Assembly: GCA_046536795.1 (NCBI GenBank)
Contig: JAWDMB010000001.1
Span: 10,449 to 74,448 of the forward strand
Length of the DNA stretch: 64,000 nt
From: Candidatus Micrarchaeota archaeon
GTDB lineage: Archaea > Micrarchaeota > Micrarchaeia > Micrarchaeales > CABMGC01
Direction: 5' to 3'
A program made the position numbers and the translations under genes. The notes beneath the pieces were generated by a model. That model worked only from the letters and a program-made list of their open reading frames with translations, searched no databases and was not told where the DNA came from. Positions 1-60,564 of the stretch are shown here, piece by piece (position 1 is the stretch's first letter; every line of letters starts with the position of its first letter).

Positions 1-435
1 AGCTGTTGGCCAGAGGCAAAAAGTCAGGCAAATTCTATTACTCCGGGCAAATGGTACTTTTTAGTAAGCAGATATAATGGCTCTTCGCTTAGTTTGTGGA
101 TAAACGGCGTACAAGTAGCAAGTACAGGAGTAAGTGGCAATCTTGCACTTCAGGGAAATGGAAACTATGCATATATAGCAAGCAAATCAAATACTGGCGA
201 TTACTTCAACGGAAAAGTGGCAGACGCACAGATCTACAACACTTCTCTTTCTGCGAGCGAGATTCAGGCGATTTACATGGAGGGCATAGGCGGTGCACCC
301 ATTGACCTGCAGCACCTTGTTGGCTGGTGGCCACTCAACGGCAATGCAAACAACTACAGTGGCAATGGCAACAACGGGCAGATAAACAATGTAAATTTTG
401 TAAGCAACTGGTATAGTGGCTATACACCACCATAA
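1..435 (+). CDS. LamG/concanavalin-A-like domain protein, 3' part (5' end outside window); paralog of 54893..55798
   Basis: Frame 1 is open from nt 1 (..PGKWYFLVSRYNGSSLSLWINGVQVAS.., a LamG-like strand pattern). The last ~70 aa (IYNTSLSASEIQAIY..WWPLNGNANNYSGNGNNGQ..NVNFVSNWYSGYTPP) are nearly identical to the C-terminus of 54893..55798. Confidence 0.7.
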   Translation, partial: SCWPEAKSQANSITPGKWYFLVSRYNGSSLSLWINGVQVASTGVSGNLALQGNGNYAYIASKSNTGDYFNGKVADAQIYNTSLSASEIQAIYMEGIGGAPIDLQHLVGWWPLNGNANNYSGNGNNGQINNVNFVSNWYSGYTPP

Positions 436-1873: not shown

Positions 1874-3445
1874 TTGTTTGAAAACACTTTCGCTAGGGTA
1901 GAGAAGATATTATACCTTAGAAAAGGCTTTAAGCCAAAGTGGGCTTGGAAAAGGGTGTTTTTCAAAAGCTTTTCCTTGCCAAAAAGTATAAACAAGCATA
2001 TTCTTATTTCTGGCGAATCTGGCAGCGGCAAGTCAAACGCTGCTAAGATGCTCTTAAAGTATTTAAGCGAGAAAGGTGCTAACTTCATACTCTTTGATCC
2101 ACATGATGAATACATAGACCTTCCAAGCGCTACAAATGCAAGTATATACGATGCAAGCGTTATAGGCGCTGATATGTTTGCATTAGATGGTATGAGCATA
2201 AAGGAGAAGAGCATTGAATTGACAGAACTTTTTAGAAAGGTGTTTAGACTTGGCGAGGTGCAGAGCAATACACTTTACAGGCTCATAAGCTATACCTATA
2301 ATTTGTTTGCGGAGAAGGGCAAAGTGCCAAGCATTTCAAGCATTCTTTATTCAATAAGTGTTTTTAAGAAGCATGCAAGCAAGGGTGAGCTCGCTATTCT
2401 AAACAGCCTTGAAAAACGTTTCATGCTAGCAAGCGAGCTTGGAAGCAAAAGTATTGATATAGGCAAGCTTCTAAATGAAAAAAGCATATTTGCACTCTCT
2501 TCTTTGCATACAAGCGAGGCGCAAGCTATTTATATAGAAGGCTTTCTCAGGAAGCTCTATAGCTATATTCTAAGCAACAAGCATGCTCGCGAATTATATA
2601 TTGTTATAGATGAAATTGAGAAACTTGGGCAAAGCAGCATATTGGCTAGATTGGCAAACGAGGGCAGGAAGTATGGCATTGGCATTATAGCAATTGCACA
2701 GCATGCGAAGAGCGTTGAAAAGAGCATAAGAGGCAATGCCTCTACAGTACTAGCCTTTTACCAAAGGGAGCCTGAAGAGCTTAATTATGTAGCGAATATG
2801 ATATCTGGCGGCAATGAGCTTGATAGATTTATAGAGATAAAGAAAGAGCTTAGAAAGCTAAAGCAGGGCTATGCTATAGCTCTTACAACAAGCAATGTCG
2901 AGCTTGTAAAATTTGGCCTCTTTGAAGGCAGAGAGGATGTCAGCTATTATCTCTTCAAGCTTGCAAAAGAGCCGATAAGAGAAGAGACACTTTTTGAAAA
3001 GCTAAGCATGTTTGGCAGAGAGGAGATAATGAAAAGCATAGACATGCTAGCAAGCAAAGGGCTTCTTGGCTCCTATACCTTATATGCTAAGCAGTACAAG
3101 GGCAGGTATTATATGATTAAGCAAAGAAACAGCGTAGAGCATGACATTATGGTTCATTTAATAAGCATGCACCTCAAAAAGCATGGCATAGGCAATAAGG
3201 TGTATAATACAAGCTATGGCCCGGATATTATTGCAAGAATGGGCAGGAAAAGAATAGCGATAGAGTATGAGACTGGAAGAAAGAATGAGGAAGAAACATT
3301 AGCAATGCTTGAGAAAAGGAAAATGTATTTCGACAAGGTTATTGTAATTTCAAACATGCCTATTTTTTCAAAAATAAAATCTGAGGGCATAGAAACATTA
3401 AATGCAAATGAATTCTTTGAAAAAGAGCCAAGTAATTATTTTTAA
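1874..3445 (+). CDS. HerA/FtsK/VirB4-like (DUF87-type) P-loop ATPase with C-terminal wHTH-like and PD-(D/E)xK-like nuclease segments
   Basis: Walker A ISGESGSGKSNAAK, FDPHDEY, GEVQSNTLYRL, Walker B LYIVIDEIEKL, EGRKYGIGIIAIAQH. C-terminus has VEHDIMVHL..GPDIIARMGRKRIAIEYETG. TTG start. Confidence 0.7.
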   Translation: MFENTFARVEKILYLRKGFKPKWAWKRVFFKSFSLPKSINKHILISGESGSGKSNAAKMLLKYLSEKGANFILFDPHDEYIDLPSATNASIYDASVIGADMFALDGMSIKEKSIELTELFRKVFRLGEVQSNTLYRLISYTYNLFAEKGKVPSISSILYSISVFKKHASKGELAILNSLEKRFMLASELGSKSIDIGKLLNEKSIFALSSLHTSEAQAIYIEGFLRKLYSYILSNKHARELYIVIDEIEKLGQSSILARLANEGRKYGIGIIAIAQHAKSVEKSIRGNASTVLAFYQREPEELNYVANMISGGNELDRFIEIKKELRKLKQGYAIALTTSNVELVKFGLFEGREDVSYYLFKLAKEPIREETLFEKLSMFGREEIMKSIDMLASKGLLGSYTLYAKQYKGRYYMIKQRNSVEHDIMVHLISMHLKKHGIGNKVYNTSYGPDIIARMGRKRIAIEYETGRKNEEETLAMLEKRKMYFDKVIVISNMPIFSKIKSEGIETLNANEFFEKEPSNYF

Positions 3446-6797: not shown

Positions 6798-7799
6798 ATG
6801 CAAGCAAGGGCACCAGGGGTTATTAAGCTATTGGGCGAGCATGCTGTTGTTTATGGCAAGCTTTCGCTAGCGAGTGCAATAAGCCTTTATGCACATGCAA
6901 AAGCAGAGAAGAAAGGTAGCGAATTTGCGATTGAGCTAAAGGATTTTTCAAAGAGCTATGAGCTGAGCGAGAATGAGCTAAGAAGAATATATCAAAAATA
7001 TGAAAAGAAGAAAAGCTTCGAAGAATTTGCAGCGAATGAAGATGCTATGCTATTGCCATACGCAACGATAGCAAGCATTCTAGCAAGGAAGCAGAGCTTA
7101 GAAGGCATAAAGATAAGCATAAGCTCAGAAATACCTGTGCAGAAGGGCTATGCAAGCAGTGCAGCATGCTCAACAGCATTTGCCTTGGCTTTGGCAAGCG
7201 CAATTGGCTTAGAAATGAGCGATAATGAAATGGTAGAGCTTGCGAGGAATGGCGACAAGGTAATACACAAGAACGAGGGTGCAGGAAGAATAGATATTAA
7301 TGCTTCTTACTATGGCGGCATAGTTAGCTACTCTAGCAAAGAAGGAGCAAAAAGGGAAGAGATAAACGCTAACTTAAACCTATTTGTTGTTGATACAGGC
7401 CCAAAGAAGAGCACAGCAGAGACCGTTGGCCACGTAGCACAGCTCTACAATGAAAGAAGAGAAGAAACGAATGCAATGCTAAATGAGATAGATGCAATAG
7501 CAAGGCAGGGCATAGCGTTGCTAAAGGCAAACAGGCTAAAGGAATTTGGCGAGCTAATGTATAGAAATCATGAATTGCTAAAAATGCTTGGCGTATCGAG
7601 CGAAGGATTAGACAAAGCGGTGGAGAAGGCAAGGGCACATGGCATGCTAGGGGCAAAGCTGAGCGGAGGTGGAGGCGGAGGTATCGCAATAGTATTAGCA
7701 GATGAAGGCAAAGAAGACTTAGATTTTTTCAAAGAGATGGGCTTTAGCGTTAGGAAGGTAAGCATAGATTATAATGGTGCAAAAGGATTAAGCAGGTAA
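6798..7799 (+). CDS. mvk: mevalonate kinase
   Basis: APGVIKLLGEHAVVYG, GYASSAACSTA, KLSGGGGGGIAI (GHMP kinase motifs in mevalonate-kinase arrangement). Confidence 0.9.
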   Translation: MQARAPGVIKLLGEHAVVYGKLSLASAISLYAHAKAEKKGSEFAIELKDFSKSYELSENELRRIYQKYEKKKSFEEFAANEDAMLLPYATIASILARKQSLEGIKISISSEIPVQKGYASSAACSTAFALALASAIGLEMSDNEMVELARNGDKVIHKNEGAGRIDINASYYGGIVSYSSKEGAKREEINANLNLFVVDTGPKKSTAETVGHVAQLYNERREETNAMLNEIDAIARQGIALLKANRLKEFGELMYRNHELLKMLGVSSEGLDKAVEKARAHGMLGAKLSGGGGGGIAIVLADEGKEDLDFFKEMGFSVRKVSIDYNGAKGLSR

Positions 7800-7943: not shown

Positions 7944-10799
7944 ATGGGTAGAGCTTTTGAAACGAAACTTAATATTCTATTAAGCGAAATTCTCAATGAA
8001 AAATTAAAATTGCAAAGTGATGCTGAAACTAGAAGGGGCAGCGGAAGACGGCCAGATATATTGATTGATATAAGTGGAGTTAAAATTGTTATTGAAGCTT
8101 CATACTCACGAAACGATGCAGAAGCAGATGTTAATAAAAAAATAGAAGAAGGTTATGGTGATATAGGGGTAGCCCTTTATTATAAGGAACCGATTTCAGA
8201 TGCTGCTTCCGAACCCGAAATCAAAAACATATTAACTAATTCTAAATTTGAAATCAAAATTATTGCAAAACAAGATCTTTCCGAACTTAACAAAAAAAGG
8301 AGCATTCCTCTAACAGAATGGTCTGAAGTAGACATAGGAGAGCTTTCTTCTATATTAATAAATATCAAAGATTTTTTAGTTAATGAAACTTATACAACAG
8401 AAGCCATAAATGAGATCGAGATTAAGACCAACGATTTTGTCGAGAGGATGAAAACCTTAGACAAAGACAAATTTATGGCACAAAAACTTTATGATGTTTT
8501 TTACAAACTTCAAGGTCTCTACTATGGGGATTACAAAGAGATAGCGGAGCTGGTTTATGCCCAGTCTTTTCTTGCACTATTACTCTCTACGATGTTTTAT
8601 AACTCGATACAATCAACAAAAGGGCTAGACAGTTTAAACAAACTAAAATCGAATCTAGGGATAAAAGGGGCCCTACAAAAAGCTTATGAAGAAATACAAA
8701 ATAAAGTAGATTATAAACCAATATTTATATTAGCACAAGAAGTAATCGAGAATATCCCTTCAGAATTGCTTGATGTTATCTTCGAGCTAAGTATGAAATA
8801 TTCTAATACTTCACTTCTTAAGAAAGACTTTTCAGGAAAGTTATACCATAAGATAGTCGGAGACTGGCAAACCAGAAAAGGTTTTGCAACATATTTTACC
8901 ACAATACCCGCCTCTTATTTGTTATCCTATCTTACCGTATTTTCTGAATTTTCACCTGTCTCCAATGTAGAGGAGCTATCTGTCTGTGATTTTACTTGTG
9001 GTAGCGGGACACTTCTAAACGCTATTTATGCGGCTTTAAAAGACAAATATATTTTAGAAAACTTTGAAAAAGGAGAAGTGGATTTGGAGAAATTTCACAA
9101 AAATTTGTTAGAAAATAATTTATGGGGGTTTGATGCATTAAGGTACGCTGTACAAATAGCTTCACTAAACCTGGTATTCCAGAACCCCAATGTACCTCTG
9201 GAAACTATGAATCTACATACGATACCGTTGGGCCTAGATAAAAATGGGGAAATCGTTTTGGGTTCATTAAAGTTTTTATATAACGATAAATTGTTTCCTT
9301 ATTTTGATGACTACTTAGGAGAAGAAGTGTCTATCCTCGAAAAGCATAGACAGAATCCCACCCTTCCAAAATTTGATTTAATTATTATGAATCCCCCATT
9401 TACAAGGGCTACAGGAAGGCATGGGAAAAAAGGGGAACTATTTGGATTTATTGCTGACAAAGAGATACGCGCTGAGGTTAAAAAAGAATATAAAAAAGCA
9501 AGAGATTACGTTAAAAAGGCGTTACTTAAAACAGCAGACAAATACTTTAAAATTATTGAAGGAGACAGACAAACATATAGTGGGATAGGTCCTGCTGGTG
9601 AAGGCTTACTTTTTATGTATCTAGCTTCGCAGCATCTAAAAGACGGAGGGAGGATCGCGTTTGTCTTACCTAAGTCTATCCTTAGTGGCGTTAGTTGGTT
9701 TCTTATGCGAGCTTATCTTCTGGAAAGATTTCACATCGAATATATAGTAGTAAGTTATGACAAAAGAAAACAAGACGAAGGGGGAGGATACAATTTTTCA
9801 GAATCAACAAACCTGAGCGAAGTACTTATAGTTGCACAGAAGAAAAAGGAAAACGACTCAAAAACCAAATTTATTGCTTTACTAAAAAAACCAGATACTT
9901 CGTTTGAAGCCAAACGGTTGGCGAAATTAATTATAAAAAGTCAGTCATCAACTGACCTTAGCCCATTTTACGGAGTAATGCAAATTGTTTCTAAAAGTGA
10001 GTTAGAGGAGAACATAGATAACTGGATAAGATTTGTTGCTTTTCCAAGTCGGCAGTTAAATGATTTTGTTCGTTACTCAGCGAAGGGAATTATTGCAGGA
10101 CATAAGTTTGAAACGGTAAAGTTGCAAAAACTTGCACAAATAGGCATAGATGCACATCAATTTCGAGATTACTTTAAAGAAACTAATTTATCGGATGGCT
10201 ATCCTGCAGTTATAAGTGGTAAAGAAGAAAATAGGCGAAGACTAATAGTTAAGCCCAATGCAAAAATTATTGCTATAGAAGCCAAAGGAATAGAGCTTTT
10301 CAAGCAAATGTCAAGTAATCTTTTGATTCCGGATAGGATAAGGGTAAATACTGTACATTATTTAGCATTATATTCTGAAGAACCAGTAATGTCTAATTTA
10401 TTTTATTCTGTAAAGTTTATTAAAGAGACAGATGAGCAAAAATATAAAGCCCTTTGTTTGTGGTTGAATAGCGTGTGGGGCATGCTTACTATTTTATCTA
10501 ATAGAGAAGAAACAGAAGGAGGTTGGATAAGACTTAAAGAGGCACACTGGAGAGCACTACCAGTATTAGACGTTTCAAAACTCGATAATAGAACATTGGC
10601 AGAGCTAAGCAAAATATTTGACAAACATAGCAAAAATAGACTGAATAGGCTTACTGCGCAGTTTGACCCAAAGAATTTAGATCAAGCAAGAAAGACGCTT
10701 GATTTAGATTTCGCTGAAGCGATTGGTATAAAAATAACAGAAGAAGAACTAATAGAAGTATATAAAATTATACACGCCGCTTTTTCGGCATGGTTATAA
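7944..10799 (+). CDS. single-chain restriction-modification enzyme (Type IIG/IIL-like): N-terminal PD-(D/E)xK-like nuclease + gamma-class N6-adenine methyltransferase + C-terminal specificity region
   Basis: N-terminus RRPDILIDISGVKIVIEASYS. MTase motif I VCDFTCGSGTLL (~8985-9017), motif IV IIMNPPFTRATG (NPPF at 9389-9400), LKDGGRIAFVLPKSIL. About 350 aa follow the catalytic core. GAGGT lies 9 nt upstream of the ATG. AAA/GAA/TTA codon bias differs from neighbours. Confidence 0.75.
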   Translation: MGRAFETKLNILLSEILNEKLKLQSDAETRRGSGRRPDILIDISGVKIVIEASYSRNDAEADVNKKIEEGYGDIGVALYYKEPISDAASEPEIKNILTNSKFEIKIIAKQDLSELNKKRSIPLTEWSEVDIGELSSILINIKDFLVNETYTTEAINEIEIKTNDFVERMKTLDKDKFMAQKLYDVFYKLQGLYYGDYKEIAELVYAQSFLALLLSTMFYNSIQSTKGLDSLNKLKSNLGIKGALQKAYEEIQNKVDYKPIFILAQEVIENIPSELLDVIFELSMKYSNTSLLKKDFSGKLYHKIVGDWQTRKGFATYFTTIPASYLLSYLTVFSEFSPVSNVEELSVCDFTCGSGTLLNAIYAALKDKYILENFEKGEVDLEKFHKNLLENNLWGFDALRYAVQIASLNLVFQNPNVPLETMNLHTIPLGLDKNGEIVLGSLKFLYNDKLFPYFDDYLGEEVSILEKHRQNPTLPKFDLIIMNPPFTRATGRHGKKGELFGFIADKEIRAEVKKEYKKARDYVKKALLKTADKYFKIIEGDRQTYSGIGPAGEGLLFMYLASQHLKDGGRIAFVLPKSILSGVSWFLMRAYLLERFHIEYIVVSYDKRKQDEGGGYNFSESTNLSEVLIVAQKKKENDSKTKFIALLKKPDTSFEAKRLAKLIIKSQSSTDLSPFYGVMQIVSKSELEENIDNWIRFVAFPSRQLNDFVRYSAKGIIAGHKFETVKLQKLAQIGIDAHQFRDYFKETNLSDGYPAVISGKEENRRRLIVKPNAKIIAIEAKGIELFKQMSSNLLIPDRIRVNTVHYLALYSEEPVMSNLFYSVKFIKETDEQKYKALCLWLNSVWGMLTILSNREETEGGWIRLKEAHWRALPVLDVSKLDNRTLAELSKIFDKHSKNRLNRLTAQFDPKNLDQARKTLDLDFAEAIGIKITEEELIEVYKIIHAAFSAWL

Positions 10800-26230: not shown

Positions 26231-27440
26231 ATGCTCAAAAGAGGCGAGATAAAACCATATCAGATAGGGGAGCTTGCAGGCGATGAAAACCTTGCTGCAG
26301 AAATAAGACGTGAATTTTTAGAAATTAAATACTCTATAAAGCTTGAGAACATTTCAGAGCATATAATAGATTTTAACGACGCAAGCAATAGAAATATAGA
26401 GAATGCGATAGGGGCTGTACAAATGCCATTAGGCTTTGTAGAGATTCAAGTCAATGGCGAATATTTGCATGGCTTAAAGCCACTCTTTCTTGCAACTACA
26501 GAAGGAAAGCTTGTTGCAGGCATTAATAGAGGTGCATCTGCGATAAACAAAAGCGGTGGTGCAACAACAAGAATAATAAAGAGTGGCATGACAAGAAGTG
26601 TTATCTTAGAATTTAATTCGGTAAAAGATACGCTCAGCGCTATTTCTTATATAAATTCTGAGGAAGCCAAAGAGGTTATAAACAATGCATTTAAAGAGAA
26701 GAGTAAAAGGTTATCATTGAATAATATTGAGACATTCACAGAAGGTAGATTTTTGTTTATACGCTACTCAGCGGAGACGCAAGCAGCGATGGGCATGAAT
26801 ATGCTTACAATTGCTTCGACATATGCTACAGAGAAGCTTGTAGAAAAGCTAAGAGAAAAAGGTATAGAAGCAAGATTTATTAGTGAGAGCGGCAATATGT
26901 GCACAGATAAAAAACCTTCTTCGATAAACCTAATAGAGGGCCGTGGAATATCGATAGTTGCAGAAGCAATAATTAAAAAAGAGGTTTTAGAAAGCTACTT
27001 TAAAGTAGATGCAAAGAGCATAGGAAAGGCTAAATTATGCAAAGAATCATATAGGCTCTACGCTTGCCGGAGCAGCACATAATGCACATGTAGCAAATGT
27101 ACTTGCAGCAACATTTATCGCTTATGGCCAAGATGTTGCACAGATAGTCGATGGCTCTATGGCAATTGTTGATACAGAAGCGAGAGGAGAAGATCTTTAT
27201 ATTTCTGTTTATATTCCTGCACTTGAAGTAGGCACATATGGTGGTGGCACAGGAAGAAAAACCGCAAAAGAGCTTCTTATTGCTAGTGGAGTTTATGGTG
27301 AAGGTGACGAAAAAGGAGTTAGCAAATATATGCTCGCCGAGTTAATAGCTAGCGGTGTACTTGCTGGCGAGCTCAATCTGCTAGCTGCAGAGGCAGGAAA
27401 AGAGCTATCTTCAGCACATGCTGCACTAAGAAGAGGCTGA
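26231..27440 (+). pseudogene. hmgA: HMG-CoA reductase (class I type) interrupted by a single frameshift near 27020-27024
   Basis: Frame 2 has ENAIGAVQMPLG, ATTEGKLVAG.NRG, QAAMGMNM, SGNMCTDKKPSSINLIEGRG. Homology continues in frame 0 from 27024: ERLNYAKNHIGSTLAGAAHNAHVANVLAATFIAYGQDVAQIV..LEVGTYGGGT..VLAGELNLLAA. Frame 2 ends at TAA 27080. Confidence 0.85.
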
Positions 27441-27458: not shown

Positions 27459-28259
27459 CTATGGCTTAACTACGGTAAAGTAGCCGCTATTGTGCAAAAG
27501 GGCTTCCTTTATTGCTCCCTTCCTGTTACCATTCGTTATTATGCCAATCCCTTTTGTCTTCTTTACCATCTCATGCAAAAGTAGAATCTTTGTATACATG
27601 CCGCCTGTAACATCTATTTTGTGCGAACCGCCTGCGCCTTTTATTACTTCATTTATGTTCTTCGAGCTAACTTCCCTTATTAGCTTTGCATCTTTGTTTA
27701 CCTTTGGATCCTTGTCAAAAATACCATCTACATCTGTTGCAAGTATAAACTTGTTTGCCTTTATTTCTCTGCTTAGCCCTTCAAAAACCGCTTCTGTTGA
27801 AGCTATAGCAACACCTTTCTTTTTGTCTATTACCGCATCGCCATAAACTACAGGAATAAAACCCCTTTCTAATGCTTCCTTTATATGCTCAACGTAGCTG
27901 TTTAATGCACGTTCACCATTCCATACCAAAAAGCTTGAAGGAACGAAAGGAAAGAGGTCTAGGCCAAGCTTTATGCCTTCATTTACAACTATCTCATTCA
28001 GCTTTTGAGCTACTAAATGCGTTATCGTTGTGCCTTTCCTGCTAAACTTGTAAATAAGACCTTCGTTTACTTTATACTTATGTGCGGGAATATGTGGAAA
28101 AGAGCCGCCGCCATGACCTATTATAAGATTGAAATCTTTCTCCTTCTTTGCTTCTTTTATCTCGTTTAACACCCTTCTTATCGTCCCCATCTTTGCTGTA
28201 TAAGGCTTTTCTGTATCTGTTATTACACTTCCCCCAAGCTTTATAAAATATGTTTGCAT
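27459..28259 (-). CDS. ipk: isopentenyl phosphate kinase
   Basis: FIKLGGSVITDT, IIGHGGGSFPH, ATDVDGIFDKDP, DVTGGM (amino-acid-kinase fold with IPK-type motifs). Confidence 0.85.
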   Translation of the reverse strand: MQTYFIKLGGSVITDTEKPYTAKMGTIRRVLNEIKEAKKEKDFNLIIGHGGGSFPHIPAHKYKVNEGLIYKFSRKGTTITHLVAQKLNEIVVNEGIKLGLDLFPFVPSSFLVWNGERALNSYVEHIKEALERGFIPVVYGDAVIDKKKGVAIASTEAVFEGLSREIKANKFILATDVDGIFDKDPKVNKDAKLIREVSSKNINEVIKGAGGSHKIDVTGGMYTKILLLHEMVKKTKGIGIITNGNRKGAIKEALLHNSGYFTVVKP

Positions 28260-54892: not shown

Positions 54893-55798
54893 TTATGGTG
54901 GCGTATAGCCACTATACCAATTGCTTACAAAATTTACATTGCTTGCTTGACCGTTGTTGCCGTTGCCACTATAATCGTTTGCATTGCCATTAAGTGGCCA
55001 CCATGCAACAAGGTGCTGCAAGTCAATAGGCGCACCGCCTATGCCTTCTTGATAAAGTGCCTGAATTTCGCTTGCTGAAAGAGAGGTGTTGTAGATTTGG
55101 ACGTTTGCAATTGAGCCATTAAAGTATCTGTCCCACTTGCCAATTTGACCTCCCCCAAAGTAGCCTATACATCCTATATATTTTCCATCAGGATACGCTA
55201 CATCATTTATATACCCACTATACGCTACACCGTTTTTCAAAACTAAAGCAGTAAATAGCCATTTATCTTTGAAATTACCTGATGCAAGCCAGTTATTACC
55301 TATGCTGGAGTTTCTAAGTTCAAATCTAAAAGAATTGTCATTATATTCTATGTCATCCCAGCCAGATTGGGCAGCGCCACTGACCCAAAAACCTACCACA
55401 CCCCCCATGGTTCCCGACATTCCAGAATCATATGACCACGCAACCAGAGTAAGATTGCAAAAGACACCTCTATATAAAGAAGAGGGTAAAACAGATATGA
55501 GACTACTTTGCCCATTAAACTGTGCCACATACTGCGGCAACTCGCCACTGCATATTCCTTCGAGGTTTATGAAAGAGGTTGTGTAAGGCCCATCTGGCCT
55601 AAAGACTTGACATGAGCCAGGTGGCGCTTTAGGAGCAAATGTCATTGGATTAAAAACGCCGAGCTGAAAAAGTGCTGCAAGCACGACGCTTATAATAAGT
55701 ATAGCCCAGCCATAAGTCATTAAGTACTCCATCGCGCTTTGCGCTTTCGATGAAGCCTTTCTTAAAGGCTTCTTCCTAAAAGTTTTCATAACACTCAA
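54893..55798 (-). CDS. class III signal peptide (type IV pilin-like) LamG-domain surface protein
   Basis: KAQSAMEYLMTYGWAILIISVVLAALFQLGVFN (archaeal prepilin-type signal), then a LamG-like body ending FNGSIANVQIYNTSLSASEIQALY. Confidence 0.7.
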   Translation of the reverse strand: MSVMKTFRKKPLRKASSKAQSAMEYLMTYGWAILIISVVLAALFQLGVFNPMTFAPKAPPGSCQVFRPDGPYTTSFINLEGICSGELPQYVAQFNGQSSLISVLPSSLYRGVFCNLTLVAWSYDSGMSGTMGGVVGFWVSGAAQSGWDDIEYNDNSFRFELRNSSIGNNWLASGNFKDKWLFTALVLKNGVAYSGYINDVAYPDGKYIGCIGYFGGGQIGKWDRYFNGSIANVQIYNTSLSASEIQALYQEGIGGAPIDLQHLVAWWPLNGNANDYSGNGNNGQASNVNFVSNWYSGYTPP

Positions 55799-55957
55799 AC
55801 ATACTAGCGTATTAAATTTTTAAAAAACCTTATTTTTCGATGCAGATAACCCTCGCGTGGGATTTAATATATCAAAACAAAGTTTTACGCCATAATGGTG
55901 GCAGCCAAGCAATTAGAAAGATTAATAAACTATTATTGAAATAAAAATAATGATTTT

Positions 55958-56263
55958 ATGGAGCAAAAGAGAACACTTAACCTGAAGCCTACTATAAAGA
56001 TACAGAATATTGTTGTAAGCGCGGATCTACACGCAACGATAGACCTTTATGCGCTCTCAAGAAATGTAAAGGAAGTTGACTACGAGCCTGAGCAGTTCCC
56101 TGGAGCGATATTTAGAATAAAAGAGCCAAAGGCTGTGATAATATTATTCAAGAACGGCAAGCTGATCTGCACGGGGTCAAGCACAGAAGCGGGCATAAAA
56201 AAGGTTCTCGAATACGCAACAAAGATTATATCAAAGTATGTGATAGATGAAGAGAAAGAATAG
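55958..56263 (+). CDS. single-repeat TATA-box-binding-protein (TBP) domain protein, 101 aa
   Basis: IKIQNIVVSADL...IDL..L.....VDYEPEQFPGAIFRIKEPKAVIILFKNGKLICTGSSTEAG matches one TBP repeat (best the C-terminal repeat: EYEPEQFPGVIYR..EPK.V.LLF.SGK.V..GAKS). There is an in-frame stop shortly upstream of the ATG. Confidence 0.8.
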   Translation: MEQKRTLNLKPTIKIQNIVVSADLHATIDLYALSRNVKEVDYEPEQFPGAIFRIKEPKAVIILFKNGKLICTGSSTEAGIKKVLEYATKIISKYVIDEEKE

Positions 56264-56266
56264 CCA

Positions 56267-57397
56267 TTATTCTTTTTTCTTTGCCACTTTTCTTACTAGT
56301 TTGTCAAAGCTCTTAAAGAAACTTTCCCAAGAGTACTTTTCTTCTATTCTCTTTCTCGCAGCCTTGCCCATCTCTTCAGCAATTTTTGGGTGCTCTACCA
56401 AGAAGAGCATCTTCTCTGCCATCTCTTCAATTGAATTTACCAAGAATCCTGTTTTATTGTTTAATATAGTTTCCTTTGGGCCGCCCTCATTCACAGAAAT
56501 TATAGGCTTGTAGCTTGCACCAGCTTCAAGAGGTATATAGCCAAAATCCTCGTTTATTGCTGCAAACAGAATAGCGGTTGCTTTTGCATAAAGGTTCTTT
56601 AGCTCGCTGTCGCTTATATTTATCTTAAATTCAACTCCTTCGCTCGCTATTTTTTTAAGCTTCTCGAAATAATTTATATGCTCTTTATCCTTTGACAATG
56701 CACCCGCTATTATAAGTTTATAACCTTTCTTTCTCTTTTCAAAAAGCTTGAATGCATTAATAACATAATCCTGCCTCTTGTTAGGTATTATCCTTGATGG
56801 ATATAGAAAATATTTATTGTCGCCCTCGTTCCTAAACTCATTGTAGTCTATTGCTGGATTTATTATTGTTGCCTCTCTATTGAAATACTGCATTATCCTG
56901 CTAGCAGTATTCCTGCTGTTTGTTGCTATTTCCTCTATATCCTTCACAATACCTTCTGCTATGAATTTATAGGATTTAGTGAATGTAGCGTAGATGAATT
57001 TTTCCGTCGGGCTTCTATTCTTCATTCTTTCTGCATATAAATCATAGACCTCTCTTGGCGGCGTGTGGCAATACCATAATACCCTTTCATTCTTATGCCT
57101 TATCCACTCGCTTGGCGAGATATGCGCATTTATAACATCGTAATCCTCTTTGATTAAAGTATTGTAGAAGGTGTAGCCGTATCTTAGCCCCTGTGAAGCC
57201 CTGTAAGGCAATATATTTGCAAGAGGAATGTGCTTCTTTATTATCTCCACATCAAAATTCTTAAACTCAGGAAAAGTTCCTTTTGGGTCAAATTCTGTTG
57301 TATATATCTTTGCTTTATAATGCTCTGCTATCTTTAATATTACCCTTTCTGCTCCGCCCCTAATGGTGAGGTAGGGCTGAGCTATTATTACCTTCAT
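56267..57397 (-). CDS. GT4-family glycosyltransferase
   Basis: EDFGYIPLEAGASYKPIISVNEGGPKETI..NKTGFLV (E-x7-E GT-B motif). Confidence 0.8.
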   Translation of the reverse strand: MKVIIAQPYLTIRGGAERVILKIAEHYKAKIYTTEFDPKGTFPEFKNFDVEIIKKHIPLANILPYRASQGLRYGYTFYNTLIKEDYDVINAHISPSEWIRHKNERVLWYCHTPPREVYDLYAERMKNRSPTEKFIYATFTKSYKFIAEGIVKDIEEIATNSRNTASRIMQYFNREATIINPAIDYNEFRNEGDNKYFLYPSRIIPNKRQDYVINAFKLFEKRKKGYKLIIAGALSKDKEHINYFEKLKKIASEGVEFKINISDSELKNLYAKATAILFAAINEDFGYIPLEAGASYKPIISVNEGGPKETILNNKTGFLVNSIEEMAEKMLFLVEHPKIAEEMGKAARKRIEEKYSWESFFKSFDKLVRKVAKKKE

Positions 57398-57402
57398 TCA
57401 AT

Positions 57403-60400
57403 CTAACCCGGCATAGTGTAGTTATTGTGCACCCAGCTTGGCTTTGGCGTTACATAAGGCAAACCACCGGTGTAGTTGTTTAATGCTAATATGACAACAG
57501 GGTTTGTTGAATTCATGTAGTTTATTCCTGTGAAGTTGCTAGGATATACGCGCGTAAAGCCAGGGAGCTCGCCTAAGAAGAAACCTTTGTAGTAATTAGA
57601 GCTGTAGAACTCTGTAGGTGCATTAGTTATAGTATAATTATTACTGTTTGGCGTATATACAACCATGAAGTCTGCATAGGTTTGACCATAAAGGTTTATT
57701 GTTCCAAAATAGAATTCTGTGTTTGGAACGATAAATGCATTGCTTATCTTTGTTCCATTTGAATAGTATATGTTTACAGGCTTTGTTGCATTGTAGAGGC
57801 TTGTTGGTATGCAATATGTCCCGTTTATATATACTTGGTTTCCTATAAGCAGTATTGCCTTCACCATAGGCTCAGTTGAATTGCTGAGCATGCAGTAGTT
57901 GTTTATGTTGTTAAGAGTTACAGGTATCAGTGCATATACAGGATCATGATTAAGCTCACATGTCGAGGTGCCGAGCCTATATGGTTGGCCTACTAGCGCA
58001 CCTTGGCTTTCTGCAAATGACATGTTTGTTTCGTTGACATGTATGCATGCTAAAAAGTCGAGAGCACCCCACTTTGGCAATAGTTGATCATCAAGCAGAA
58101 GATATTTTGCGTGAACAACGTTGTTCATAAAGCTTGCCATCTCTTTAGCGCCATAGCCGTCAGCAGGACCAAGTACATATTGTGCTGCTGCAGCATAATC
58201 TAGAGTTGGCACCGCATTATCGCCACGGAGCACAGCGTTGCTGTTGCCAAACCAGTTGATCCAATCACCATAGTCCCACCAAGAGAGTATTCTGGGACCA
58301 AATGGGCCAACGTTAGCACGCATCCATGCTGTAGCGTTAAGCCAATAATTTGGCACAACGTTGCAGAACAGATCATAGCCTATAGCATTTCCGCTATTTA
58401 CTATGCTTGTACAGTTTGGATTAATTATTGCAGAGATGAGAGGTATAAACGTTGCCGCTTCTAAAAGTGCAACAAGAATTGCAACACCATAAAGAGCTCT
58501 CATTGCCTTTGGATTGTATTCTGCTTTTCTGGGCTTAAAGCTATAGCCGTTTTGTATGTAGAGAATAAGTTCACCGATTATTGCGCCTATTGCTATTATA
58601 TAGCCAACACCAAAGTGTGGCAGGTACTTAACTTCTATCATGCCTGCTACAGCAAGCGGCCATACGGCTGCGAGAGCCATTATGCTTGTTTTTGAATTTC
58701 TATAATAAATTGCCAAAAGCTCCAGAATAGTAAATAATGCTAGAACAAGCCATACAATAATGTTAACTCCACCTATGCTAATGCCTATAATTCCAAAGCC
58801 TGCAGAGCCAAAATTAAAATTAATCCCTGTTGGTGCATACTCTTGCACTGTCATGAATAGGGGTATAGATGGTGTTACAAAATGGGTGCTTAATTGTATA
58901 TATTTCTTGAACGGTACCCCAAGAGGCGTGAATATTATAAGAAGCAGAGCAAAGAATACAAGAAGAGAAAATATGCTAAACTTTGATAACCCTTTAATAT
59001 CACGCTTAAATCTACCAAATAATGCTTCAAAAAATATGACAAATGCGCCAAAAAGAGAAAGTATAGAAAAGACTGCTATCGCTAAGCTGTTTTTCTCTAA
59101 TTTTTCTGCGTATAGCTTAGATAGATAATCAAACAGTATTACAAAGATTAGTGCAAAAAGCGGAAATGCGATTATTATAGGTATGCCAATCACTGAAGGG
59201 GTTCTTTCTGTAAGTGTTGCAGAGTATGGTGCATAAAGAATGTAGAATATTGAGAACACTATAATAACTATTAAATTCATCTTATAGAACTCCTTCATGC
59301 CTTCATTTCTTATAACGCTTATAACGCCTTGTGCTATTATATAAGCAGCGAGCACACCAGCATTAACTGTATAGTAGTGTGCACCGAGGAATGTTGAGGC
59401 ATAAGCTATACCAGCGAGTATGGCGAATCTCGGCTCTTTCATATATTTTACAGCAACTATGTATGTTGCATAGAAGAAGAACATTGCAAATATACCCCAC
59501 GGCTCGAGAAGCTGCTCGCCTGCTATGAATGTTGTAACCAATGCTGGCATACTTGCAATTAGGGTTGCACCTATCAGTGCAGGAAACTTGCCATATTCAT
59601 GATAAAGGAAGAAGAACACAACAAATACCAGAAGCGCTGCGGTTATAGGCGGATACCAACTACTTACAAGGCTAAGCAAATTTATATCAACGCTTGTTGC
59701 ACTGGCAGGATGTGTATTTGCAAGATCATACCAGTAAGCTTCTAGATAAGGCACTATCGGCTGAATTCTATGTATGGTTCCATTTACTACAGTCGGCCAA
59801 GCTGAATGATCATGTAGCAATTGGTAGCCATATGTTAGTATATATTCTGTGCTTATCATATCAAAATAAGGGTCAAACTCAAAATACCTCGGAGCTACAC
59901 CTATATTTGCAATTCTCGTTGCAAAGGTAAGAAACATAAGGAAAAGTAGGAAGAGCCAGACATAGCTCATGTTCGCTTTCTCTTTGCTAGCACCTTTTTT
60001 GTGAGCTTCAAGGATAAGCCTCTCTTCGGCTTCATGCATCTCTATTAGCTCTTTCTCTTCTTTCTTATGCAGAGAGATTATTCTTTCCTTCTCCTCTGCG
60101 CTCATGCTGCTTATTGCTGCTTCTTCGCTCTCGTGCTTTCTCTCAAGCGCCTTCTCCTCATCTTCATGCTTTTTGATAAGATCTAGCTCAAGATTTAGCT
60201 CACGCATCTCTGCTCTTATATCATTTATTCTTTTCTTATAGTCTTCTTCCCTCTTAGCCTCTTCGCTTTTTTCCTTACTAAATTTAAATGCGCCCTGCTG
60301 GAAAGACAAAGCTATACCTATTATTGTAAGAAGTATCACATTTGCATTATAAAGCGATTCAGAGAAGGAAAAGAAGTGTATATATGGTATTAAATAGCTT

Positions 60401-60564
60401 TCAAGCCAGACGAGCGCGGGAGGAAATATTAGACCAAAGATAAATCCAAATATTGTTATTTCAAACATTGAAAGATGTGTTTTTCTAAGAAGGGCTAACG
60501 CTAGAAAGAAGCCAGGCACCATTATTGAGAGAAATGCTTCTAATATAACAATAAACAAAGACAT
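57403..60564 (-). CDS. aglB: oligosaccharyltransferase AglB (STT3 family) with ~200-aa N-terminal extension
   Basis: WWDYGDWI (WWDYG motif), EFDPYFD after the canonical first TM helix, at least 13 TM helices, large C-terminal sequon-rich globular domain. Confidence 0.9.
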   Translation of the reverse strand: MSLFIVILEAFLSIMVPGFFLALALLRKTHLSMFEITIFGFIFGLIFPPALVWLESYLIPYIHFFSFSESLYNANVILLTIIGIALSFQQGAFKFSKEKSEEAKREEDYKKRINDIRAEMRELNLELDLIKKHEDEEKALERKHESEEAAISSMSAEEKERIISLHKKEEKELIEMHEAEERLILEAHKKGASKEKANMSYVWLFLLFLMFLTFATRIANIGVAPRYFEFDPYFDMISTEYILTYGYQLLHDHSAWPTVVNGTIHRIQPIVPYLEAYWYDLANTHPASATSVDINLLSLVSSWYPPITAALLVFVVFFFLYHEYGKFPALIGATLIASMPALVTTFIAGEQLLEPWGIFAMFFFYATYIVAVKYMKEPRFAILAGIAYASTFLGAHYYTVNAGVLAAYIIAQGVISVIRNEGMKEFYKMNLIVIIVFSIFYILYAPYSATLTERTPSVIGIPIIIAFPLFALIFVILFDYLSKLYAEKLEKNSLAIAVFSILSLFGAFVIFFEALFGRFKRDIKGLSKFSIFSLLVFFALLLIIFTPLGVPFKKYIQLSTHFVTPSIPLFMTVQEYAPTGINFNFGSAGFGIIGISIGGVNIIVWLVLALFTILELLAIYYRNSKTSIMALAAVWPLAVAGMIEVKYLPHFGVGYIIAIGAIIGELILYIQNGYSFKPRKAEYNPKAMRALYGVAILVALLEAATFIPLISAIINPNCTSIVNSGNAIGYDLFCNVVPNYWLNATAWMRANVGPFGPRILSWWDYGDWINWFGNSNAVLRGDNAVPTLDYAAAAQYVLGPADGYGAKEMASFMNNVVHAKYLLLDDQLLPKWGALDFLACIHVNETNMSFAESQGALVGQPYRLGTSTCELNHDPVYALIPVTLNNINNYCMLSNSTEPMVKAILLIGNQVYINGTYCIPTSLYNATKPVNIYYSNGTKISNAFIVPNTEFYFGTINLYGQTYADFMVVYTPNSNNYTITNAPTEFYSSNYYKGFFLGELPGFTRVYPSNFTGINYMNSTNPVVILALNNYTGGLPYVTPKPSWVHNNYTMPG

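Follow-up and report, generated by a model that had tools for sequence, protein, structure and literature searches.

A conserved half-size TATA-binding protein in Micrarchaeales and its possible pairing with a second single-repeat paralogue

Known TBP arrangements and the half-size gene

The TATA-binding protein, or TBP, serves as the textbook case of a protein presumed to have passed from homodimer through gene duplication to fusion, and to our knowledge every characterised cellular TBP is already fused. Free-standing single TBP domains have nevertheless been described in archaea (Brindefalk et al. 2013, PMC3597702): the TbpA-type proteins of Halobacterium cluster with true TBPs, closely resemble their own species' full-length TBP, occur beside it and are non-essential, while the monopartite family of the Thermococcales (P. 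furiosus NP_578195) is a stand-alone TBP fold of ~91-97 aa that is distant from TBP and always found beside a normal one. That study was the only nearby work in our literature search, which turned up no account of TBP genes that are half-size or paired, whether in Micrarchaeota or elsewhere among DPANN archaea. Single-TBP-domain proteins are already known, then, as accessories to a full TBP; the paired half-TBP arrangement discussed below is not described in the literature searched. A first-pass annotation of the present DNA, which knew of no characterised free-standing single-repeat archaeal TBP, had missed TbpA and the Thermococcales family, so that this part of its novelty claim was too strong.

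The window, by which we mean the whole 64-kb stretch of DNA analysed, has a G+C content of 38% and carries archaeal housekeeping genes (PolB, PolD DP1/DP2, PheRS alpha and beta, HisRS, a thermosome subunit, L34e and POR); no TFB gene lies within these 64 kb. The features needed here are as follows.

55915..55929, + strand: putative archaeal promoter, purine-rich BRE-like AGAAAG (55915-55920) and then TATA-like TTAATAAA (55922-55929), by sequence inspection
55958..56263, + strand: coding sequence of the single-repeat TBP (family A paralogue), ATG start, 101 aa, from the ORF listing and one PF00352 repeat
56003..56014, + strand: Q16-N17-I18-V19 in strand S1, with N17/V19 aligned to yeast N69/V71 and N159/V161; N17 and V19 invariant
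56081..56104, + strand: stirrup Y42-E-P-E-Q-F47-P-G49, aligned to yeast YEPELFPG (E186/E188/L189/F190); invariant in all one- and two-repeat relatives
56147..56149, + strand: F64, the second DNA-kinking Phe, inside the clade-specific LFKNGK; invariant, aligned to yeast F116 and F207
56267..57397, - strand: converging GT4 glycosyltransferase (Pfam PF00534 and PF13439), which marks the family-A locus

By sequence the 101-aa product belongs to the PF00352 TBP-repeat family: it holds one repeat that fills the profile (positions 2-85 of 85, E=1.3e-25, 89.5 bits against a cut-off of 22.9), and TBPs of the PDB are matched at E values down to 7.5e-40. It has one repeat where a canonical chain has two in tandem, and it matches the full-length TBP models of NCBIfam over half their length, with scores far under their cut-offs. 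The N-terminal domain of RNase HIII (DUF3378, PF11858) is matched below its threshold (19.7 bits against 27, E=0.001) and over residues 45-78 only. The first-pass annotation had described an intact, free-standing one-repeat gene with a stop shortly before its ATG, and the details bear this out: the motif quoted for the ORF is an exact match to its translation, an in-frame TGA (55937-55939) lies six codons 5' of the ATG, and the stop-to-stop segment around the ORF is 107 aa. Likewise, the 159 nt that separate the ORF from the divergent LamG-like gene (start 55798) contain no second or frameshifted repeat in six frames, just as tblastn and the repeat HMM found no second TBP-like sequence anywhere in the 64-kb window; and the ORF indeed ends 3 nt short of the end of the converging GT4 gene, which is locus context and not a functional partner of the half-TBP.

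Compared with the canonical archaeal TBPs of P. woesei (1PCZ/1AIS), S. acidocaldarius (1MP9) and M. jannaschii (2Z8U), the window protein has PF00352 in common and is about 34-40% identical to each repeat; it shares with them the order of secondary-structure elements (predicted as S1-H1-S2-S3-S4-S5-H2 from a structural model), the minor-groove Asn/Val, the Phe pair and the YEPEQFPG stirrup, which matches archaeal C-terminal repeats residue for residue. We take N17 and V19 to be the counterparts of the Asn and Val that contact the minor groove in TBP-DNA structures, and the Y42-G49 stirrup presumably provides the first of the DNA-kinking Phe residues together with those acidic residues which, from TBP mutants, bind TFB/TFIIB in canonical C-terminal repeats. 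The DNA-contact set of N17, V19, F47 and F64 is complete (yeast equivalents N69/V71/F99/F116 and N159/V161/F190/F207), and the putative TFB/TFIIB-binding acidic stirrup is retained. With all of these residues kept, TATA binding and bending as well as TFB recruitment would be expected. The difference is one of architecture, as the canonical TBP has two repeats per chain, whereas the window protein has one and its saddle would come from two chains; since a single repeat is half of a saddle, the protein must act as a dimer. A head-to-tail self-fusion was modelled confidently (pLDDT 91.3, pTM 0.80) and superposed on complete TBPs with TM 0.81-0.89 and RMSD 2.1-3.4 Å over ~190 columns, whereas a single-sequence AlphaFold model of the same fusion reached a pLDDT of 36. 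The confident model is a compatibility check only, because its alignment consisted of natural relatives that included real two-repeat TBPs.

The TATA-like TTAATAAA lies at -36 to -29 from the ATG; the same promoter-like element is kept in a close relative (L005), and a similar TTTATAA stands at equal distance in two more (L012 and L068). From the position of this putative TATA box, the half-TBP mRNA may be leaderless or have a very short leader.

Several neighbours in the window deserve mention in their own right. LamG/concanavalin-like genes (PF13385) lie at 54893-55798 (-) and 94-435 (+); the N-terminus of the protein encoded 5' of the half-TBP gene is hydrophobic, and genes of this kind stand beside the family-A TBP in L031, L068, L093 and L124-L133. 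Just past the GT4 gene, 57403-60564 (-) encodes a 1053-aa multi-pass membrane protein that gives no Pfam match even at E<=0.01 and is kept at 55-58% identity in the family-A loci L012, L068 and L115. HMG-CoA reductase is spread over two ORFs in different frames, 26231-27082 and 27159-27440 (+), which are separated by ~76 nt and cover PF00368 profile positions 2-235 and 286-368; the frameshift could mean that the gene is a pseudogene, is truly split or was misassembled, and intact mevalonate kinase-like (6798-7799) and isopentenyl-phosphate-kinase-like (27459-28259) genes are present. Ku (PF02735; 31258-32019, +) adjoins an ATP-dependent DNA ligase (PF01068 and PF04679; 32019-32996, +); together they make up an NHEJ pair of bacterial type within a small DPANN genome. 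A 951-aa Eco57I-like fused restriction-modification methylase (7944-10799, +) and a HerA/DUF87-type ATPase (1874-3445, +) are possible defence or mobile-element genes.

Conservation and origin of the half-TBP family

The window protein is 100% identical to RXR32_01080, encoded on a 285-kb contig of a Candidatus Micrarchaeota MAG. The first-pass annotation had proposed a survey for orthologous half-TBPs, and these proved to be abundant: a homology search gave 269 clusters, and the best 120 listed are all single-repeat proteins of 90-174 aa, whose core of ~86 aa is 75-100% identical and whose variation is confined to Lys-rich tails. At the DNA level, we surveyed one genome per GTDB species for sequence encoding YEPEQFPGAI, which yielded at least 119 tiles from at least 118 assemblies and, being motif-based, registers only TBPs carrying this motif. 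The tiles listed comprise 71 one-repeat and 48 two-repeat ORFs, one of the 71 being a two-repeat gene that runs off the end of its contig. The one-repeat ORFs fall into family A, to which the window protein belongs (26), family B with its subgroups B1 and B2 (25), family C (7) and smaller groups, some of them interleaved with two-repeat proteins.

The gene order of family A, in which an FAD-dependent reductase is followed by the half-TBP and the convergent GT4 gene, is well kept, with GT4 downstream and convergent in 23 of the 26 tiles and the reductase present in 17; the same placement of GT4 recurs in L001-L004, and the gene order is found again on a 940-kb contig. The median dN/dS is 0.086 over 22 orthologues (0.103 in family B), and the family-A half-TBP is under strong purifying selection. 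It occurs in both GTDB families of Micrarchaeales, Micrarchaeaceae and CABMGC01. No second or frameshifted repeat was found near the gene at any of the 71 one-repeat loci, and neither the 120 listed family-A proteins nor the 26 genome tiles include an A-A fusion. That the gene is a pseudogene or an annotation artefact, i.e. a truncated two-repeat TBP or a chance ORF, has nothing in its favour beyond the half size of the product; with a dN/dS of 0.09, conserved synteny, single-repeat homologues in all 120 of the 269 clusters that are listed, same-locus orthologues that are all single-repeat, and no remnant of a second repeat, we rejected this reading and regard it as barely conceivable.

A few family-A records stand apart. 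In the genome YF1.bin64 (L101 1399-2889, -) the TBP repeat is the C-terminal end of a 497-aa stop-to-stop ORF, which could stem from read-through or fusion involving the upstream gene, or from faulty assembly. In the assembly DAHVQB01 a Cas12f1-like/TnpB gene (PF07282; L144 1-170) lies directly 5' of the family-A TBP, which places a transposon-associated gene at the locus in one lineage. P0141 (127 aa, on a 2-kb ENA contig) is A-like in its N-terminal part and B-like in its C-terminal part, with the junction at the shared YEPEQFPGAI; it is probably a chimeric assembly and possibly a recombinant. Half-TBP genes of Micrarchaeales type also turn up in MAGs labelled Methanothrix, Acidoferrum, Saccharimonadales, Baltobacteraceae and Marsarchaeota (L030, L066; P0083, P0109; L006, L015, L065, L070, L074), which are probably mis-binned contigs or mislabelled MAGs.

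In an exhaustive search of 1.84 billion representatives, the closest full-size relatives, at 47-49% identity, were TBPs of Diapherotrites/Iainarchaeota, and ordinary-length two-repeat TBPs occur in other lineages of Micrarchaeota, e.g. Anstonellales. These two-repeat TBPs of Micrarchaeota and Iainarchaeota are the nearest relatives of the window protein (41-53% identical) and have YEPEQFPGAI, LFKNGK-IC-G and Lys-rich tails in common with it, YEPEQFPGAI and LFKNGK being found in every repeat of the clade. They differ from it in being fused, in standing at the ancestral locus and in having repeats unusually like one another, whereas the window protein is single and at a new locus: the N- and C-repeats of one protein are on average 57% identical in Diapherotrites and as much as 81-88% identical in some Micrarchaeota, while the figure for 149 other TBPs is ~41%. 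The C-terminal-repeat likeness that the first-pass annotation had read in the gene stands weakly against the wider family (39.8% to the C-repeat and 29.5% to the N-repeat of P. woesei TBP; means of 39.3% and 36.5% for 149 two-repeat representatives) and is gone against the nearest relatives (Diapherotrites N 50.6%, C 47.0%; two-repeat Micrarchaeota N 46%, C 52%).

The known single-domain proteins are further away. The near-identity of TbpA-type proteins to a full TBP with which they coexist is not seen here, where identity to the best two-repeat relative does not exceed 53% and that relative belongs to other lineages; and while TbpA resides with a full TBP, the co-resident of family A is another single repeat. 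From the Thermococcales family, going by its published description, the window protein is set apart by its 89.5 bits to PF00352 and its 40% identity to the P. woesei C-repeat.

Families B and C, other one-repeat genes and the two-repeat TBPs share a neighbourhood of L21e, RpoF/Rpb4, DUF655 and KsgA (Pfam), and the L21e-RpoF-DUF655 neighbourhood is the ancestral TBP locus. Family A is never found at the L21e/RpoF/DUF655/KsgA locus (26 tiles). It is also a sequence outlier with 45-55% identity to every other group, and it carries the substitutions A20V, A34S, L61I and L62I at positions otherwise invariant across the clade; family B, in comparison, is 58-64% identical to the ancestral types. Its own locus, its outlier identity and these substitutions mark family A as a paralogue that is derived and has moved, and not as a survivor of the ancestral state. 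The suggestion of the first-pass annotation that the protein resembles the postulated ancestral TBP must therefore be given up, as the phylum otherwise has two-repeat TBPs or single-repeat TBPs at the ancestral locus.

Two proteins, P0403 and P0405, consist of two B-like repeats that are 85-88% identical to each other, and the gene of the second (locus L151 5001-5591) sits in a family-B1 neighbourhood, with MoxR, RpoF, DUF655 and L21e on one side of the TBP and DedA/VTT, Pelota and KsgA on the other; P0405 looks like a very recent in-situ tandem duplication and re-fusion of a single-repeat gene. A clean fission into an N-half and a C-half was rejected, as neither family corresponds to N or to C; the neighbour-joining tree of the repeats, built on 77 columns, is poorly resolved. 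Family C is a third single-repeat clade (L108 = JBAZVF010000001.1, a 1.3-Mb contig; L032, L051, L070, L081, L098, L123), with ~89% identity within the group, at the ancestral locus. The two-repeat TBP genes of L020 and L092, from one Micrarchaeota MAG and one Bathyarchaeota MAG, are broken by frameshifts, which are either sequencing errors or signs of decaying genes.

Two half-TBP genes in one genome

Exact-sequence look-up placed both families in the same genome twice: KGH61_00585 (A) with KGH61_00965 (B1), 76 gene numbers apart, and ACP5K5_00040 (A) with ACP5K5_02685 (B2). The two families are 51-55% identical overall and 51-53% within one genome. Family B (KGH61_00965, ACP5K5_02685, P0234) is like A in size, fold, genomes, functional residues and purifying selection, and differs from it in keeping the ancestral L21e-RpoF-DUF655 locus, unlinked to A, and a near-ancestral sequence, where A has a new locus and its four substitutions. 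The complete Micrarchaeales genome Mia14 points the same way, with two arCOG01764 (TBP) proteins and one arCOG01981 (TFB) protein in its arCOG table (PMC5498576). When the tiles were placed with the GTDB classification of MAGs from AMD sediment (PMC12153355), the B2 tiles belonged to Micrarchaeaceae in all five classified cases and the B1 tiles to CABMGC01 in all four, and the genus JAKATK01 was found to include two species with an A tile and two with a B2 tile.

Among the at least 119 survey tiles listed, no assembly had both A and B, which weighs little given the extent of the listing, and none had both A and a two-repeat locus. The contigs of P0029, P0051, P0047, P0099 and P0118 had no assembly in common with the B tiles, and GC content did not discriminate between A and B tiles. 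An Iainarchaeum MAG, JAGGYF01, has two single-repeat TBP genes that are 69% identical, one at the ancestral locus (L099, JAGGYF010000007.1) and one elsewhere (L011, JAGGYF010000044.1); this pair is an independent parallel to A and B, unless it is an artefact of binning or MAG contamination.

From the published Mia14 count and the YEPEQFPGAI motif scan, we infer that the genomes with A and B lack a two-repeat TBP. The canonical TBP is fused, whereas Micrarchaeales have two half genes at different loci and apparently no fused gene. An accessory role beside a full TBP with the YEPEQFPGAI motif was rejected, as no A-bearing assembly has a two-repeat locus among the tiles listed and Mia14 has only two members of the TBP family. 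The first-pass annotation had imagined heterodimerisation or competition with the full-length factor, and this loses its object in genomes that probably have no full TBP and in which the co-resident is the family-B half.

Could the half-size protein instead be the sole TBP, an obligate homodimer that copies the pre-duplication ancestor? The 64-kb window has no other TBP and no assembly among the survey tiles listed has both A and B, both of which would fit; however, A and B occur together in two same-genome cases, by which the idea is contradicted for those two genomes, and in one genus, the TBP family has two members in Mia14, and A is a derived form and not the ancestral one. For the window genome, a sole TBP would require the specific loss of its family-B gene. 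This reading was rejected and strikes us as very improbable. The family-B copy of the window genome would lie outside the 64-kb window, as in KGH61.

Pairing of the two chains and its implications

Taking these findings together, the window protein is very probably a functional TBP subunit that dimerises and occurs alongside family B. We propose that two chains with one repeat each would form the complete, ten-stranded DNA-binding saddle by dimerising, that a dimer containing A would bind TATA-like promoter DNA, bend it and bring in the single TFB, and that an A.B heterodimer would amount to a TBP split over two genes. The partner of A, be it B or a second A chain, is what we infer here with less assurance. 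For the A.B heterodimer as at least a partial, and probably the main, state in the cell, the chances stand at even or a shade above, and for the whole statement of a functional dimerising subunit, a coexisting B and mainly A.B pairing we lean modestly in favour.

The preference for A.B has several grounds. By default, co-expressed chains with a conserved interface in common should mix; genomes of ~1 Mb retain both genes, and do so under strong constraint; Mia14 has one TFB only; and the divergence between A and B (51-53% identity) is about what separates the two repeats, N and C, in ordinary archaeal TBPs. If both chains were needed, this would account for the retention of both genes in ~1-Mb, one-TFB genomes.

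The main rival is that A2 and B2 homodimers are two separate symmetric general factors, serving different promoter sets or conditions, for which the multiple TBP paralogues of haloarchaea and Methanosarcina offer a parallel. That B-type repeats can pair with themselves is evident from P0403 and P0405, each of which joins near-identical B-like repeats in one protein, the latter at a B1-type locus; B2 homodimers are therefore probably viable, and A is not obviously needed as a partner for B. The A-A self-fusion model, subject to the real two-repeat TBPs in its alignment, is a confident saddle, and the core substitutions unique to A within the clade could enforce self-pairing. Transcription polarity in archaea is set by the contact of TFB with the BRE, so that a symmetric TBP would be workable. 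No division of labour between A and B is visible, the TFB stirrup and all DNA contacts being kept in both paralogues. Against this, Mia14 has a single TFB, two redundant general factors are unexpected at a genome size of ~1 Mb, co-expressed chains would mix unless pairing specificity had evolved, and A-A fusions are absent from the 120 listed family-A proteins as well as from the 26 tiles. We consider two separate homodimers possible but doubtful.

A further alternative, already raised in the first-pass annotation, would put A outside the productive factor altogether, as a regulator or decoy that pairs with B or competes for TATA or TFB and so damps or redirects transcription. The derived and relocated state of A beside a near-ancestral B would suit such a role. 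On the other hand, the loss of one of the two interfaces would be expected of a decoy, whereas every DNA-contact and TFB-stirrup residue is kept in A; and A is even more conserved than B (dN/dS 0.086 against 0.103), is found in both sampled families of Micrarchaeales and has no evident full-length TBP as a target. Since neither interface has decayed, a decoy role is improbable, and the pairing of A with B stays the preferred reading.

Micrarchaeales include the cultured Mancarchaeum and Micrarchaeum lineages, and the proteins concerned are small and easily expressed and the organisms available in co-culture, so the arrangement is accessible to experiment. It would open to such work the questions of how much asymmetry a TBP requires, how polarity is set with a symmetric or two-chain TBP, and whether fusion is reversible. 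For annotation, half-TBPs are missed by the full-length TBP models of NCBI, and most are named hypothetical. If the proposal is true, a whole archaeal order would be running its basal transcription on half-size TBP chains only, as a conserved pair, and the relatives with halves at the ancestral locus and with recent re-fusions (85-88% identical repeats) would extend the picture. We regard as evenly poised the wider view that Micrarchaeales are without any two-repeat TBP and build the saddle from A and B chains, and that Micrarchaeota and Iainarchaeota switch repeatedly between one-repeat, paired one-repeat and freshly re-fused two-repeat forms, which would make them a living model of the pathway from homodimer through duplication to fusion.
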